Source: a virus
Taxonomy: Duplodnaviria; Heunggongvirae; Uroviricota; Caudoviricetes
DNA: 36,963 nucleotides
Reading direction: 5' to 3' (one strand)
Virus record (IMG/VR): IMGVR_UViG_2563366920_000001
The notes below the pieces were generated by a model. It saw only the letters and a program-made list of their open reading frames with translations, was not told where the DNA came from and did not search any database. Shown here in pieces: positions 1,369-36,963 of this stretch (position 1 is its first letter; the number at the start of each line of letters is the position of its first letter). The translations under genes and the position numbers were made by a program.

Positions 1369-1444
1369 GCCGATATAGCTCAGTTGGTAGAGCAGCGCAT
1401 TCGTAATGCGAAGGTCGTAGGTTCGACTCCTATTATCGGCACCA
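1369..1444 (+). tRNA. thrW: tRNA-Thr (anticodon CGU)
   Basis: 76-nt cloverleaf GCCGATATAGCTCAGTTGGTAGAGC...GGTTCGACTCC...TATCGGCACCA with anticodon loop TTCGTAA and encoded CCA end. Lies downstream of proA as in E. coli. Confidence 0.9.
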
Positions 1445-1458
1445 TTTAAATCAATAAG
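1400..1458. other. Prophage left junction (attL), overlapping the 3' part of thrW; exact core not resolvable from one junction
   Basis: The integrase stop codon lies 14 bp beyond the tRNA 3' end. P22-type integrases use the 3' segment of thrW as core (established knowledge). Confidence 0.35.
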
Positions 1459-2622
1459 TTACACATCATTAGTACCTTCCTTATTTTTTGACTGGGACAA
1501 ATTTGGGACCGATGGGTTCAGGATCGAGTCTATTTGCCGTGCGTGTTCGGTAAGGTGATTAGGTGCAAGGTGAGCATATCGACGAACCATTTCGATAGAC
1601 TCCCAGCCTCCCATTTCCTGTAACACTGACAACGGGACTCCGGCTTGAACCAGCCAACTTGCCCAGGTGTGTCTCAAGTCGTGAAATCTGAAATCATCAA
1701 TACCAGCCCGTCTCAGCGCCGCTTTCCAGGCTGTGTTTGCGTCATACCGCATCTTCCTTACTGTTGGCGCTTTCGTTCCGTCTGGTTTGGTACAGCTTTC
1801 CTTGTACACAAATACCCAACGGTGATGATTCCCGATTTGTTTTTTCAATACGCGACATGCAGTATCATTCAGCGCAACGCCAATTGCGCGGTTTGATTTA
1901 CTCTCTTCCGGGTTTATCCATGCCACCCGGCGCTGCATATCTATTTGTTGCCATTCAAGGTTGATGATGTTCGAGCGTCTTAAGCCTGTTGCCAGTGCAA
2001 ATTCAACAACAGACTTTAATGGCTCCGGACATTCATCAATCAGCCTTTGTGCTTCATGGGGCTCCAGCCAGCGGATCCGTTTATTCTTTGGTTGAGGCAC
2101 TTTAATAATTGGTGCCTTATCCAGCATTTTCCATTCACGCTCTGCGGCTCTTAGTAGGGCCTTTATAAATGAAAGATGCGTAGCCTTCGTTGCAACGGAC
2201 GCTGGTTTTGGCGTGTATTCTGGAACAGGTTTCCCTTTTTTTCTGCATGCTTCTGCCCTGAGTTTCCAGTTTTCCTCATGACGCCGGTTCGTCATTTTCT
2301 GCATTGCTGAATAAATTTTTGATTCAGTAATGTCTCTTAGTTGCATTCCTGCGAAATGTTGAAGCCAGAATCCGATCCGGCTTTTGTCATCGTCCAGTGA
2401 TTTTTTATGTGCTTTCTCTTCAAGCCACCTGACACACGCTTCCTCGAACGTTATATCAGGTATTTCACCAAGTTTGCTGACCCGCCATGCTTCAGCCTTT
2501 AGCTTGTCATGGAGTTCTGTCGCCTGCCTTTTGTCCTTTGTTCCAAGAGACTGTTTAAATCTTTTACCGTTCGGCAATGTGAAACTGGCGTACCATATTT
2601 CACCTCTGCGGAAGAGTGACAT
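1459..2622 (-). CDS. int: Tyrosine integrase, P22-type (387 aa)
   Basis: ATG at 2622-2620 with GAGGAAAG Shine-Dalgarno. N-terminus [46 protein letters not shown] and C-terminal [39 protein letters not shown] match the P22 Int family catalytic region. Confidence 0.9.
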
Positions 2623-10963: not shown

Positions 10964-11059
10964 GGTGACCGTGAGAGCACTACTGACCCCTGAAATAGCC
11001 CCGCGTATGGGGATCGTATTGTTCAGACCAGGTTCAGAGCTGATGCCCCTGTTTATGCC

Positions 11060-12608
11060 TGTCTCTTGATCAGATCTCCTGATCAAGAGACTTCATCACC
11101 AGGTAACCCTCAACCATATCCTGAAGTCTGAACCAGCCATCCCACATGACTACCCAACCGGGGCGACCTGTGCGTTTGCTGTCATGCCATCGCCCCAGTT
11201 TCGCCAGTTTCAGACAGGCCCATTTCAGTGTCGGCATCTGTGACGGAAGCGGTTTTCCTTCCAGCTTAACCCACAGCAGTTTCCACTCTGTCGGCGTCAG
11301 TATTTTCTCACAGCTGTCATTTTGTGTTTCTTCACTGATACCGCCCTGCCGCAGGCCCAGCACCCGCACCGCGATAAACGCCTTGATAACCACCATGCGC
11401 TCGAGGTTATCCCGGGTCTGCATTCGCAGCGATTCCACACATGTACCACCACTTTTCCACGCCTTGTGGTATTCCTCTATCAGCCAGCGTCGCTCGTAAT
11501 GGCTGACGATACGTCGCGCATCGGCGGCACTCGCCACTTTTTCTGACGTCAGCAGATGCCAGCAGGCGCCGTCCTCTGCCTGCTCCCGGCAACAGACATA
11601 CGTGAGCGGGAGCGCCTGGCCGCTGTTGTCGGGATTTTTTATGCTGACTTCGCTGTAACTGATGAACATCCGGGCCTGGCGGGCTGCCCGCCCGCCTTTT
11701 TGCATCACATTTAGCGTGTGGCTTCCCGCGGTTGCTAGGACTTCCGGCAGTTCGAAGAGCTTGCCGGGTGCTTCTTCCAGCCGGCGATTCTGTGCTGCAC
11801 GCACCACGAAGCGCTGCCCGTGGCTGACTTTATAATGCAGGTAATGCCAGATATCCGCTTCCCGGTCACAGACAGTGATTACCCGTTTCTGTATCTCCCC
11901 CAGCCGTTCGGCCATGCGCTCCGAAGCCTGCTGCCAGCGGTAACTTTCTTTTTCTTCATAGGGACGTTCTTTTCGCTGGTGCTTAACACCGTAGGTGTCC
12001 GTGGCACGACTCCAGCGCTGCTGTTCGATAAGACCGACTGGCAGGGCGCTGTCGGGGGCGTACATCAGGACAGAGTGAGCCAGCAGCCCGCGCGTCTTCG
12101 GGTTAGTGGTGGTATTCCCCAGGTCATCAGATGCCGTACTGTGACTGAAGTTAATGGTGGTGGTGTCTTCCAGCGCGAGGAGCAGCGGATGAGCCTCACA
12201 TGCCCTTACAGTGGCGGTAAATCCGGCTTCGGCAATGGCTTGCGGGGACACAGACGGGTTACGTATCAGGCGGTACGCACCTTCAACCTGAGCAGTGGAC
12301 TGGGATGATTTCACAATAGAAAGACCTGCATGCTGAGCGAGAGAAGAGGCCAGTGACACAAGGCGTCGTGTACGACGCGGATCACCGAGACGGGCATGTC
12401 CAAACTGCTCGTTAGCCCATGAATAACAATCAGAAAGTACCATAACAGACCCGAAGAAAATGAAATATAAGAGAAGATCAACGGGTGAGGAAAAAGTTCA
12501 AAAAATCGCTGCCGGGGAGGAAGGAAACTACCGGATGGAAAGAGTCCCCCTAAAGCAGACTGACAGACATCACAAATCCCCGGGTGGGGATTTGTGTATA
12601 AGAGACAG
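11060..12608 (-). mobile_element. IS4-family (IS50-like) insertion sequence, about 1549 bp, with target-site duplication
   Basis: Left terminus CTGTCTCTTGATCAGATCT (11060-11078) is identical to the IS50 inside end as I recall it. Right terminus, reverse-complemented, is CTGTCTCTTATACACAAAT (ending 12608), outside-end-like. Flanking direct repeat GTTTATGC at 11052-11059 and 12609-12616. Confidence 0.8.
11070..12443 (-). CDS. tnp: Transposase (IS50/Tn5 Tnp family, 457 aa)
   Basis: ATG at 12443. Conserved blocks GDPRRTRRL, VCDREADI, RWLIEEYHKAWKSG and DSKRTG align with Tn5 transposase. ORF ends inside the inside-end-like terminus as in IS50. Confidence 0.85.
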   Translation of the reverse strand: MVLSDCYSWANEQFGHARLGDPRRTRRLVSLASSLAQHAGLSIVKSSQSTAQVEGAYRLIRNPSVSPQAIAEAGFTATVRACEAHPLLLALEDTTTINFSHSTASDDLGNTTTNPKTRGLLAHSVLMYAPDSALPVGLIEQQRWSRATDTYGVKHQRKERPYEEKESYRWQQASERMAERLGEIQKRVITVCDREADIWHYLHYKVSHGQRFVVRAAQNRRLEEAPGKLFELPEVLATAGSHTLNVMQKGGRAARQARMFISYSEVSIKNPDNSGQALPLTYVCCREQAEDGACWHLLTSEKVASAADARRIVSHYERRWLIEEYHKAWKSGGTCVESLRMQTRDNLERMVVIKAFIAVRVLGLRQGGISEETQNDSCEKILTPTEWKLLWVKLEGKPLPSQMPTLKWACLKLAKLGRWHDSKRTGRPGWVVMWDGWFRLQDMVEGYLVMKSLDQEI

Positions 12609-13535
12609 GTTTATGCAGGGGCGTGTACTGCTGGAGCCTGAGCCGGAACGTTATTCATCTTTCGCCAGTGGTGCCGTTCCCGCGGCATCACAACCGCTGG
12701 CGGATGATCCTGCTGTTCGGGCCGTGTTCCGCAATGAGGCAGTGATCCGTCGTGCTGGTGGCGTGGAATGTCTTGAAAGCTGGTTACTTCGTGAAAAAGG
12801 CTGCCAGTGGCCTCATTCCGACTGGCACAGCGAGAACATGACCACAATGCGACACGCTCCGGGCGCAATCCGTCTGTGCTGGCACTGTGATAACCAGCTG
12901 CGCGATCAGTTCACGGAACGGCTGGAATCAATGGCAACGGATAACTGTGCCCGCTGGGTGTTGTCTGTTGTGCGTCGGGATCTCGGTTTTGATGATAGTC
13001 ACGTTGTGACAATGCCGGAACTGTGCTGGTGGCTGATTCGTAATGACCTGGCGGATGCCTTACCGGAAAGTGCAGCCCGTAAGGCACTGAGATTACCAAA
13101 GCCTGTTGTGCCGTCTGTCACCCGGGAAAGTGACCTTGTGCCTTCGGTTCCTGCCACCAGCATCATCCAGGATAAGGCAAAAAAGGTGCTGGCGCTGAAA
13201 GTGGATCCGGAGTCGCCGGAGTCTTTTATGTTACGCCCAAAACGTCGCCGCTGGGTTAATGAAAAGTACACGCGCTGGGTTAAGACACAGCCGTGTGCAT
13301 GTTGTGGAAAGCCCGCTGATGATCCCCACCACCTGATAGGCCACGGTCAGGGGGGAATGGGTACAAAAGCGCATGACCTCTTTGTGTTGCCTTTGTGCAG
13401 AAAGCATCACGACGAGCTGCATGCGGATACCGTGGCATTTGAAGAGAAGTATGGCTCCCAGCTGGAGCTGATATTTCGTTTTATCGATCGCGCGCTGGCA
13501 ATTGGCGTGCTGGCCTGATTTTGTGGAGAAAGTTG

Positions 13536-17088: not shown

Positions 17089-17565
17089 ATGCAGGCACTA
17101 AATTCCCAGCGTAAAGCTTTCCTGGATATGGTGGCATGGTCAGAAGGAACGGATAACGGGCGACAACCGACACGTAACCACGGTTATGATGTTATTGTTG
17201 GTGGCGAACTGTTCACTGATTACTCCGATCACCCTCGCAAACTTGTCACGCTAAACCCCAAACTCAAATCAACAGCTGCCGGACGTTACCAGCTTCTTTC
17301 ACGCTGGTGGGATGCTTACCGTAAACAGCTTGGCCTGAAAGATTTTTCTCCAGAAAGCCAGGACGCTGTAGCTCTGCAGCAGATTAAAGAGCGTGGTGCT
17401 TTACCGATGATTGACCGCGGCAGTATTCGTCAGGCAATCGACCGTTGCAGCAATATCTGGGCGTCGTTACCTGGTGCAGGTTACGGTCAGTATGAACATA
17501 AAATCGGTGACCTGATTGCCCGATTTAAAAAAGCTGGTGGGGTAGTAAATGAGGCTGAGATATAA
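17089..17565 (+). CDS. Endolysin, lambda R-type lytic transglycosylase (158 aa)
   Basis: ATG at 17089 with GAAGGAG. Near-identical to lambda R over NQRKAFLDMVAWSEGTDNGRQ...HGYDVIVGGELFTDYSDHPRKLVTLNPKLKSTAAGRYQLLSRWWDAYRKQLGLKDFSP (recalled). Confidence 0.9.
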   Translation: MQALNSQRKAFLDMVAWSEGTDNGRQPTRNHGYDVIVGGELFTDYSDHPRKLVTLNPKLKSTAAGRYQLLSRWWDAYRKQLGLKDFSPESQDAVALQQIKERGALPMIDRGSIRQAIDRCSNIWASLPGAGYGQYEHKIGDLIARFKKAGGVVNEAEI

Positions 17566-35328: not shown

Positions 35329-35903
35329 CAAACGATGATTACATCCGTCTGTTGTCGGCACTGTTGCCACCCGGTCCGGCGTGGTCAGCCAGAGATCCGG
35401 CGATTGCCGGTGCGGCACCGTCATTAACCCGCGTTCATCAGCGTGCGGATGCCCTGATGCGGGAGCTGGATCCGCGCACCACTACTGAACTGATAAACCG
35501 CTGGGAGCGTCTGTGCGGTCTGCCGGATGAATGTATTCCCGCAGGGACACAGACCCTTCGCCAGCGTCAGCAACGACTGGATGCGAAGGTTAACCTGGCG
35601 GGCGGCATCAATGAGGATTTTTACCTTGCACAGCTTGCTGCCCTGGGCAGACCAGACGCTACCATCACGCGATACGACAAAAGCACGTTCACCTGCTCAT
35701 CTGCCTGTACTGACGCGGTGAATGCGCCGGAATGGCGGTATTACTGGCAGGTCAACATGCCAGTCGCCACCAACACCACCTGGATGACATGTGGCGATCC
35801 CTGTGATTCCGCGCTGCGCTTCTGGGGGGACACCGTTGTCGAGTGTGTGCTTAACAAACTCTGCCCGTCGCATACCTATGTGATTTTTAAATATCCGGAG
35901 TAA
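35319..35903 (+). CDS. Tail protein (Mu gp48-like, DUF2313; YmfQ-like)
   Basis: ATG at 35319. 194 aa. Resembles e14 YmfQ-type tail proteins (recollection). Confidence 0.7.
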
Positions 35904-35906
35904 TCC

Positions 35907-36557
35907 ATGCATCGTATAGACACGAAAACCGCGCAGAAGGATAAGTTCGGCGCGGGTAAGAACGGTTTTACCCGTGGTAACCCCCAGACTGGCACGCCTG
36001 CCACCGATCTGGATGATGACTACTTTGACATGTTGCAGGAGGAGCTTTGCAGCGTGGTGGAGGCATCCGGTGCCAGCCTGGAGAAGGGGCGGCACGATCA
36101 GTTGCTTACCGCACTTCGCGCGCTGCTGTTAAGCCGCAAGAATCCGTTTGGCGATATCAAATCGGATGGCACGGTGAAAACGGCTCTCGAAAACCTTGGT
36201 TTGGGAGAAGCAGCTAAAAGGAATGTAGGTACAGGGGCGAATCAGATACCTGATATGAGCCTGTTCGCGTCAAGTAATACCGCAACGGCTGCTGCGCAAA
36301 AATTTCCGTCTGGATTAATTTTACAGTGCGGTCAGTTGAATGGCTCCCCTAATGTATCTTCAACATACGGGATGAGGTTCCCGATGACATTCTCAAGAGT
36401 CCTTGCTGTCACAGTTACATTGAACGTTACTGGCGCGTCAGGGCAGCCGACTGTATCGGCGACAAATGTCCATAACACTGGATTTGATATTACAGTGTCG
36501 CCCGGTTCAGGATATGGTTCATCTGCTGATGCGTATTACATTGCAATGGGATATTAA
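35907..36557 (+). CDS. Tail fibre protein (short, 216 aa) with conserved N-terminus and AT-rich variable C-terminus
   Basis: ATG at 35907 with GGAG. N-terminus [47 protein letters not shown] is the conserved fibre N-terminal domain. Composition switches to AT-rich after about codon 100. Confidence 0.7.
36184..36209. promoter_or_regulatory. Candidate DNA-invertase crossover site (hix/gix-like) inside the tail fibre gene
   Basis: CTCTCGAAAACCTTGGTTTGGGAGAA has the AAACC-NN-GGTTT core and left arm TCT(C/T)GAAAACC, similar to hixL TTCTTGAAAACCAAGGTTTTTGATAA as I recall it. Coincides with the GC-to-AT switch in the fibre gene. Confidence 0.4.
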
Positions 36558-36561
36558 CGAA

Positions 36562-36963
36562 ATGTCATATTTTTATTCTGCATCGACAAACGGATTTTAT
36601 TCGACTGAATTTCACGGCACCAATATTCCTGATGATGCAGTGGAAATCTCGGAATCAGAGTGGAAAACACTGATTAATTCGCAGAGTGTAACAAAAATGA
36701 TTACCTGTGGTGAGAATGGTCACCCTGTCATTGTTGACCGTCCTTCTCCAACACCAGAACAATTAGCCTTAATAAATAATGAAAAGAAATCTGCACTGAT
36801 AGCAGAGGCAACGAATGTAATAGCGCCGCTTCAGGATGCGGTTGATTTAGATATGGCAACAGATGATGAAACGAAACTGTTACTGGCATGGAAAAAATAT
36901 CGGGTGCTGCTTATGCGTGTTAATGTAGTAAAACCCGAGTGGCCTATGCATCCAAATAAATAG
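36562..36963 (+). CDS. Tail fibre assembly protein (Tfa, 133 aa)
   Basis: ATG at 36562 (ORF track begins upstream at 36466). C-terminus IAPLQDAVDLDMATDDETKLLLAWKKYRVLLMRVN matches the conserved Tfa motif (TfaE-like). Stop at 36961-36963, the last bases of the window. Confidence 0.7.
   Translation: MSYFYSASTNGFYSTEFHGTNIPDDAVEISESEWKTLINSQSVTKMITCGENGHPVIVDRPSPTPEQLALINNEKKSALIAEATNVIAPLQDAVDLDMATDDETKLLLAWKKYRVLLMRVNVVKPEWPMHPNK

Follow-up and report, generated by a model that had tools for sequence, protein, structure and literature searches.

An orphan pixL crossover site in the tail fibre gene of an SfII-like prophage, probably the remnant of an invertible segment locked in one form

The stretch of DNA analysed here, 36,963 nucleotides long and referred to below as the window, holds most of an SfII-like prophage whose tail fibre gene carries an orphan copy of the pixL crossover site. 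It is very probable that the distal half of an invertible segment has been deleted from this prophage and that the fibre is now locked in one form. The distal half was presumably lost rather than never present, and the site is now most likely functionless in cis. The conclusion about the DNA downstream of the window rests on proxy contigs that are identical to the window's last 6 kb. The underlying system is already known, being the P-segment/Pin member of the Din family described in e14, and the locus is nothing new in kind.

The prophage and its boundaries

The prophage in the window is SfII-like: an O-antigen-converting myovirus inserted at thrW, of a kind already in public databases. Its left boundary is made up of four features:

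1-1254, at the window start: 417-aa open reading frame of the aldehyde dehydrogenase family
1369-1444: tRNA-Thr(CGT) gene thrW
1399-1446, plus strand: attL core of 48 bp, the 3′ part of tRNA-Thr thrW
1459-2622, minus strand: tyrosine integrase (PF00589)

The first reading frame is probably proA, judging by its position beside thrW, and with this positional assignment the prophage shows the thrW integration beside proA and the adjacent tyrosine integrase of an SfII-like prophage. The attR site, a 48-bp direct repeat of 1399-1446, was found about 5.5 kb past the window end, at 11928-11975 of the proxy contig L055. The att repeats delimit a prophage of ~41.1 kb, of which the window covers all but the last ~5.5 kb, and the location of attR in this proxy means that the whole ~41-kb prophage is accounted for. 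The gtrA-gtrB-gtrII genes and an acyltransferase gene, as in SfII-like prophages, lie between tfa and attR in three proxies, outside the window.

The late region encodes a Mu-type contractile tail, composed of the tape measure, a DNA circularisation protein, gp45, gp46, gp47 and gp48/YmfQ. The nearest phages are the Shigella flexneri serotype-converting myoviruses SfII, SfI, SfIV and SfV, which have the tail module, fibre, cassette and thrW integration in common with the window, and the nearest prophages are the e14-type elements of Escherichia coli. The match of SfII to the window extends as far as the tfa stop, and beyond it SfII has the gap, acyltransferase and gtrII that follow tfa in the proxies; SfII carries ISSfl9 between oac and gtrII, whereas the proxies do not. 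Unlike the Sf phages, the window has an IS4/Tn5-family insertion sequence in the prophage early region (11045-12622). This element is bordered by 23-bp imperfect inverted repeats ending ...CTGTCTCTT and encodes a 457-aa transposase on the minus strand (11070-12443; PF14706, PF01609, PF02281).

A pixL-identical site within the tail fibre gene

The features at the right end of the window are the following:

35907-36557, plus strand: tail fibre gene, 216 aa, from the list of open reading frames
36184-36209, no strand assigned: Din-family crossover site identical to pixL, CTCTCGAAAACC TT GGTTTGGGAGAA
36184-36195: left (outer) half-site
36196-36197: core dinucleotide TT
36198-36209: right (inner) half-site
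36198-36924, plus strand: AT-rich host-range cassette, comprising the variable fibre C-terminus and most of tfa
36529-36963, plus strand: tfa, tail fibre assembly (chaperone) gene, 144 aa as annotated in relatives
36925-36963, plus strand: SfII-type replacement of the tfa 3′ end, as seen when the tfa 3′ ends of the decay series described below are aligned

The site is identical at 26 of 26 positions to pixL of the E. coli e14 P segment (MG1655 1207778-1207803), and the pixL sequence tabulated in PMC3241671 (Table 3) matches it, in reverse complement, at 26/26. It is composed of two imperfect 12-bp inverted half-sites around a 2-bp core, as in the dix consensus. Inversion in e14 has been mapped experimentally to TTGGTTTGGGAGAAGG and its complement (PMC12529663); the counterpart of this stretch in the window is TTGGTTTGGGAGAAGC, at 36196-36211. 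The 25-bp stretch 36185-36209 is present as a single copy in the window, with no other copy at up to three mismatches and no match in 100 shuffles, and the core AAACCNNGGTTT is found once (0.04 expected). Within the fibre gene, the site is in frame and encodes A-L-E-N-L-G-L-G-E.

The original prediction had pointed to a 26-bp site with an AAACC-TT-GGTTT core in the fibre gene, and this site has proved to be a 26/26 pixL that is unique in the window; its proposed kinship with the Hin/Gin/Cin/Pin crossover sites is borne out by the pixL identity. The stretch 36184-36209 is a genuine Din-family crossover site. The switch in composition described at the site is likewise real, with a GC content of 0.559 for 35907-36196, as in the upstream tail module, and of 0.432 for 36197-36963. 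The AT-rich fibre C-terminus and tfa were also correctly taken for a cassette of the invertible-segment type, which is found elsewhere in such segments beside a recombinase gene.

The N-terminal ~101 aa of the fibre form a constant part of the StfP/YcfK type that differs from K-12 StfP by one residue, and the C-terminus (aa 132-216) is a gp53-like receptor-binding domain (PF21882, Gp53-like_C). The tfa product belongs to PF02413 (Caudo_TAP, E=2e-25), and an alternative internal start is present at 36563 (MSYFYSA...). The left boundary of the cassette coincides with the site core, and its right boundary lies at ~36924, where the window departs from the version found in invertible segments: the last 13 tfa codons encode VVKPEWPMHPNK followed by the stop, as against ...TSTALDIEWPTPPAVQAR and stop in the invertible-segment version.

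Two further observations concern the mosaic structure of this region. The tfa 3′ end occurs with three Tfa C-termini in Sf-type phages (SfIV/invertible, SfI and SfII/window), with breakpoints near 36924 and 36944. Upstream, a 79-bp block (36132-36210) that consists of the site and the ~52 bp at the end of the constant part is 96-100% identical to otherwise unrelated genes annotated as 'phage tail protein' or 'tail fiber protein', including those of O157:H7 strains, which suggests a second mosaic boundary near 36132.

The same site and cassette in intact invertible segments

An identical left site, together with an inverted partner and an adjoining recombinase, is found in L003, L006, L007, L016 and K-12 e14. 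In all of these, a pixR-type partner (TTCTCCCAAACC AA CGTTTATGAAAA) is situated 1.8-1.9 kb further downstream, immediately next to the start of a serine recombinase gene, and the DNA between the two sites holds tail-to-tail tfa genes and an inverted fibre tip. The window cassette itself is present, at 95-98.5% identity, in four independent invertible segments beside a serine recombinase gene:

L043: e14/SfV-type prophage, cassette silent, beside pinE
L038 and L039: two P2-like prophages, cassette silent
L040: phage-plasmid of 48.7 kb, cassette expressed on a 630-aa fibre

In an alignment of these four with the window, no relationship is seen in the DNA before the site. The three silent copies have a pixR-type outer half-site, and their identity to the window sets in at the core dinucleotide and extends across the cassette; in L040, identity starts inside the outer half-site. 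The half-site switch at the core in the silent copies reads as the footprint of site-specific exchange. Because of the pixL identity, and because the same cassette occurs in real segments with boundaries at the core dinucleotide, the site is taken to be a true crossover site and the cassette to be half of an invertible segment.

The junction recurs on a larger scale. The fibre gene has matches in 1,885 E. coli records; of 60 taken from these at even spacing, 59 lose similarity to the window between 36193 and 36265. Half of the sample (30/60) does so at 36207-36211, the right edge of the site, the inner half-site being common to all cassettes, and a further 16 of the 60 do so at 36257-36265, the end of a linker common to a subset of cassettes. 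In the SfI genome paper (Table 1), homology to e14 ends at SfI position 17,234, which maps to 36210 of the window.

The DNA between tfa and attR

The DNA downstream of the window was taken from proxy contigs that carry the window's exact fibre and Tfa, obtained by exact-protein look-up. In three of these contigs (L046, L048 and L055), window positions 30963-36963 (6,001 bp) recur with 100% identity, with no mismatch or gap, and the downstream DNA is the same in all three save for one base. After tfa come a 775-bp AT-rich non-coding gap, an acyltransferase gene (PF01757), GtrII, GtrB, GtrA and attR. The acyltransferase arrangement was found in all 25 contigs examined that carry the exact Tfa, and no recombinase gene was called in the 15 loci examined. 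The same layout follows tfa in SfII and in E. coli SCU-124, both of which match the window up to the end of tfa.

The searches for the missing parts gave a consistent picture. With PinE as the tblastn query, the window returned only a 14-aa match (E=6.8), and it contains no serine recombinase; the proxies, searched up to attR, hold no homologue beyond a 19-aa fragment (E=0.018). StfE found no match in the proxies, and TfaE only a 24-aa relic on the plus strand. No second crossover site is present in the window, no inverted site-like 26-mer and no inner half-site lies between the tfa stop and attR in the proxies, and no pixR-like partner at up to three mismatches occurs in SfII or SCU-124. The window and proxies were also scanned with a 20-position half-site consensus; the only other hits, at window 4528 and L055 12210 (14-15/20 of the consensus), have no AAACC/GGTTT cores and were treated as chance.

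The original prediction placed the partner site, an alternative fibre segment and an invertase beyond the window end. These are absent as far as attR in the 100%-identical proxies, where inspection for an inverted site, an oppositely oriented tfa or tip and an invertase yielded none of them. Of the proposed invertible segment, therefore, the real site and a cassette that is half of such a segment stand, and the partner, the alternative tip and the invertase do not. The Fis-dependent recombinational enhancer is probably absent as well, there being no invertase gene to carry it. As the second site, the invertase and the alternative half are all lacking, the locus is a degenerate (locked) derivative of the family and not a member of it.

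Among 32 cassette-bearing E. coli genomes, the SfII-type tfa 3′ end never occurs in invertible segments, and the cassette is always in the expressed orientation where gtr or oac genes follow.

Intermediate states and relics of the lost half

Relatives of the window show intermediate states between the intact segment and the state found here. L043 has the full segment with a frameshifted pinE. In SfIV and CFSAN061762, the window cassette, in the expressed orientation, is followed by an overlapping, tail-to-tail tfa of opposite orientation that an IS3-family element (ISEhe3) has cut short, with gtr coming next; this layout of an inverted tfa′ cut by an IS and followed by gtr is that of SfIV, L042 and L062. 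In SfI-type loci (SfI/L044), gtr comes directly after tfa. The window and SfII represent the last step, in which the last 13 codons of tfa (from 36925) have another Tfa-type ending, followed by the gap and the acyltransferase module. The inverted remnants are located as follows:

L062 5154-5678: SfIV gp22, in opposite orientation, overlapping gp21 tail-to-tail and cut by ISEhe3
L042 5243-5758: counterpart of gp22

SfIV gp22 has been described as a unique additional tail fibre assembly protein (PMC3851460). From the sequences compared here, it is most plausibly what is left of the lost segment half after truncation by an IS, and not an extra functional chaperone. SfIV thus differs from the window in keeping an inverted tfa remnant.

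In the lineage of the window, the gap after tfa holds a relic of ~155 bp (L055 6764-6917, 329-482 bp past the window end) that resembles a P-type tail-to-tail tfa junction. One part of it is a peptide like the TfaE C-terminus (E=0.014) and the other a ~65-bp antisense tfaP-like match with a local score of 37-43, against 23±2 (maximum 29) for shuffles, and both parts are colinear with e14. The orientation of the relic is opposite to that expected from a single deletion, and more than one event must therefore have taken place. The 775-bp gap as a whole was considered as a remnant of the inverted half and rejected, as it contains only the ~155-bp relic, in an unexpected orientation.

Two short stretches with weak similarity were noted between the acyltransferase and gtrII genes: a PinE-like stretch of 19 aa, GIYFRSTTDSIDIKSACGR (L055 8385-8441, E=0.018), and a Tfa-end-like DVIWPE followed by a stop (L055 8678-8701). 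They could stem from a pin/tfa module since lost, or be fortuitous. At the DNA level, the only matches of this interval were to SfII-type loci and to non-coding sequence in L010, and neither stretch was counted as evidence.

A locked fibre and the alternatives to it

Site-specific inversion of this type is well established for Gin, Hin, Cin and Pin. It also rests on experiments carried out with e14 (PMC12529663). The fibre gene of the window appears to be built like e14 stfP, with a conserved baseplate-attachment N-terminus, pixL, an exchangeable receptor-binding tip and tfa. In intact relatives, a Pin-type serine invertase would cut both strands, in staggered fashion, at the central TT of both pixL and pixR (TTTTCATAAACG TT GGTTTGGGAGAA), the latter being inverted and abutting the invertase gene. 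The flip of the ~1.8-kb segment would then fuse the constant part of the fibre to the alternative tip and bring the matching chaperone gene into the transcribed orientation. In the lineage of the window, the distal half, composed of the inverted tfa′, the alternative tip, pixR and pin with its enhancer, would have been deleted, and an O-antigen modification module (acyltransferase and gtrII-gtrB-gtrA) would now occupy that position, beside attR. The site would persist as an orphan after a recent loss; its survival can be explained by that recent loss and by its being coding sequence, which specifies LENLGLGE in the conserved part of the fibre. With only pixL and one tip with its tfa left, no inversion can occur in cis and the fibre is locked.

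It is unlikely that the orphan pixL is still in use, with Pin-family invertases of the host or of co-resident prophages acting on it in trans to exchange the tip or to invert a chromosome segment. For recombination, Din invertases such as Hin and Gin need both crossover sites and an enhancer with bound Fis in cis, on the same supercoiled molecule, and have a strong preference for sites in inverted orientation. These requirements argue against use in trans, as does the lack of any second site, and of an invertase gene with its enhancer, in the neighbourhood. On the other side, PinQ, PinR and PinE have all been shown to invert the e14 P segment in trans (PMC12529663), the site is fully intact, and the movement of the cassette among four unrelated fibre genes has left junctions at the site. 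In principle, selection that still operates, instead of recent loss, might account for the intact 26/26 site; at the 2-3% divergence seen among these phages, less than one change is expected in 26 bp, and the intactness of the site therefore does not separate the two. A specific form of trans use, in which the orphan pixL would serve as a docking site at which PinE, PinQ and PinR of co-resident cryptic prophages swap the receptor-binding tip of the phage for tips kept in other prophages, is quite improbable. If it were true, a phage with no invertase of its own would gain access to its host's library of fibre cassettes.

Very little room is left for the reading that the window simply stops in the middle of a functional invertible segment, and that the partner, the alternative tip and its tfa, and the invertase follow in the next few kb. 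In its favour, the last position of the window is that of the tfa stop, the site matches pixL at every position, and just such an arrangement is present in many relatives that share the fibre N-terminus. However, the three proxies and every contig examined with the exact Tfa run into acyltransferase/gtrII and then attR, the PinE, TfaE and StfE searches and the site scan gave nothing beyond short weak fragments, and the tfa 3′ end of the window is of the SfII type that was never seen in invertible segments among the 32 cassette-bearing genomes.

It is hardly credible that the palindrome is a by-product of coding for LENLGLGE and that the composition shift is ordinary homologous-recombination mosaicism: the peptide motif and a degraded site do persist in other genera with no recombinase within 7 kb (L009, L010, L013, L014, L019, L023 and L026), so that coding constraint must preserve part of the motif, but this reading is opposed by the 26/26 identity to an experimentally used site, by the silent copies in which the outer half-site turns to the pixR type exactly at the core as the inner half and cassette stay identical, and by the presence of the same cassette in four bona fide invertible segments.

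Comparison with known systems

Among known systems, the P segment/Pin system of e14 (stfP-tfaP / tfaE-stfE, pixL, pixR and pinE) is one of the closest to the locus. The pixL site of e14 is identical to that of the window, and both have the same upstream genes (gp47/ymfQ) and the same order of constant part, site, tip and tfa. Compared to e14, the window has a different cassette of tip and tfa, and its lineage is devoid of the inverted tfaE-stfE half, pixR and pinE, with O-antigen modification genes and attR in their place, as seen in the proxies. The G segment/Gin of Mu, the C segment/Cin of P1 and the Min system of p15B follow the same logic, in that alternative tips, together with their chaperones, are joined to a constant part of the fibre. 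These three systems and H/Hin of Salmonella are complete, with two or multiple sites, an adjacent invertase and an enhancer, in contrast to the one site and one cassette found here.

The SfI and SfIV genome papers contain no word starting with 'invert' and mention neither the site nor an ancestry by inversion. What the present analysis adds is only small: this site and ancestry, unmentioned in those two papers, and the explanation of SfIV gp22 as a remnant. In practice, fibre genes of the SfII/SfI/SfIV/SfV type should be annotated with an orphan pixL at the junction of the constant and variable parts, and prophages of this type would be regarded as having a fixed, not a switchable, host-range tip; there is little import beyond annotation. 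The locus also serves as a clear example of two processes: cassettes of invertible segments pass from one phage to an unrelated one at the crossover site, and morons (gtr/oac) take the place of a prophage's invertase end.

Other arrangements of the cassette and site were encountered in related elements. In the phage-plasmid pGMI14-004_3 (L040 2954-7404), the expressed cassette is followed by an inverted tfa, two inverted fibre-tip fragments and a recombinase gene, a layout that looks like a multi-cassette, Min-like arrangement. The plasmid search also returned one P1-like context, in which a truncated copy of the cassette lies beside IS3. In an E. coli locus (L037 7056-7081), the last 26 codons of the constant part, the left half-site and the core are kept, and the right half-site diverges after GGTTTGG (…GGTTTGGCTTAT), which places the junction inside the site.
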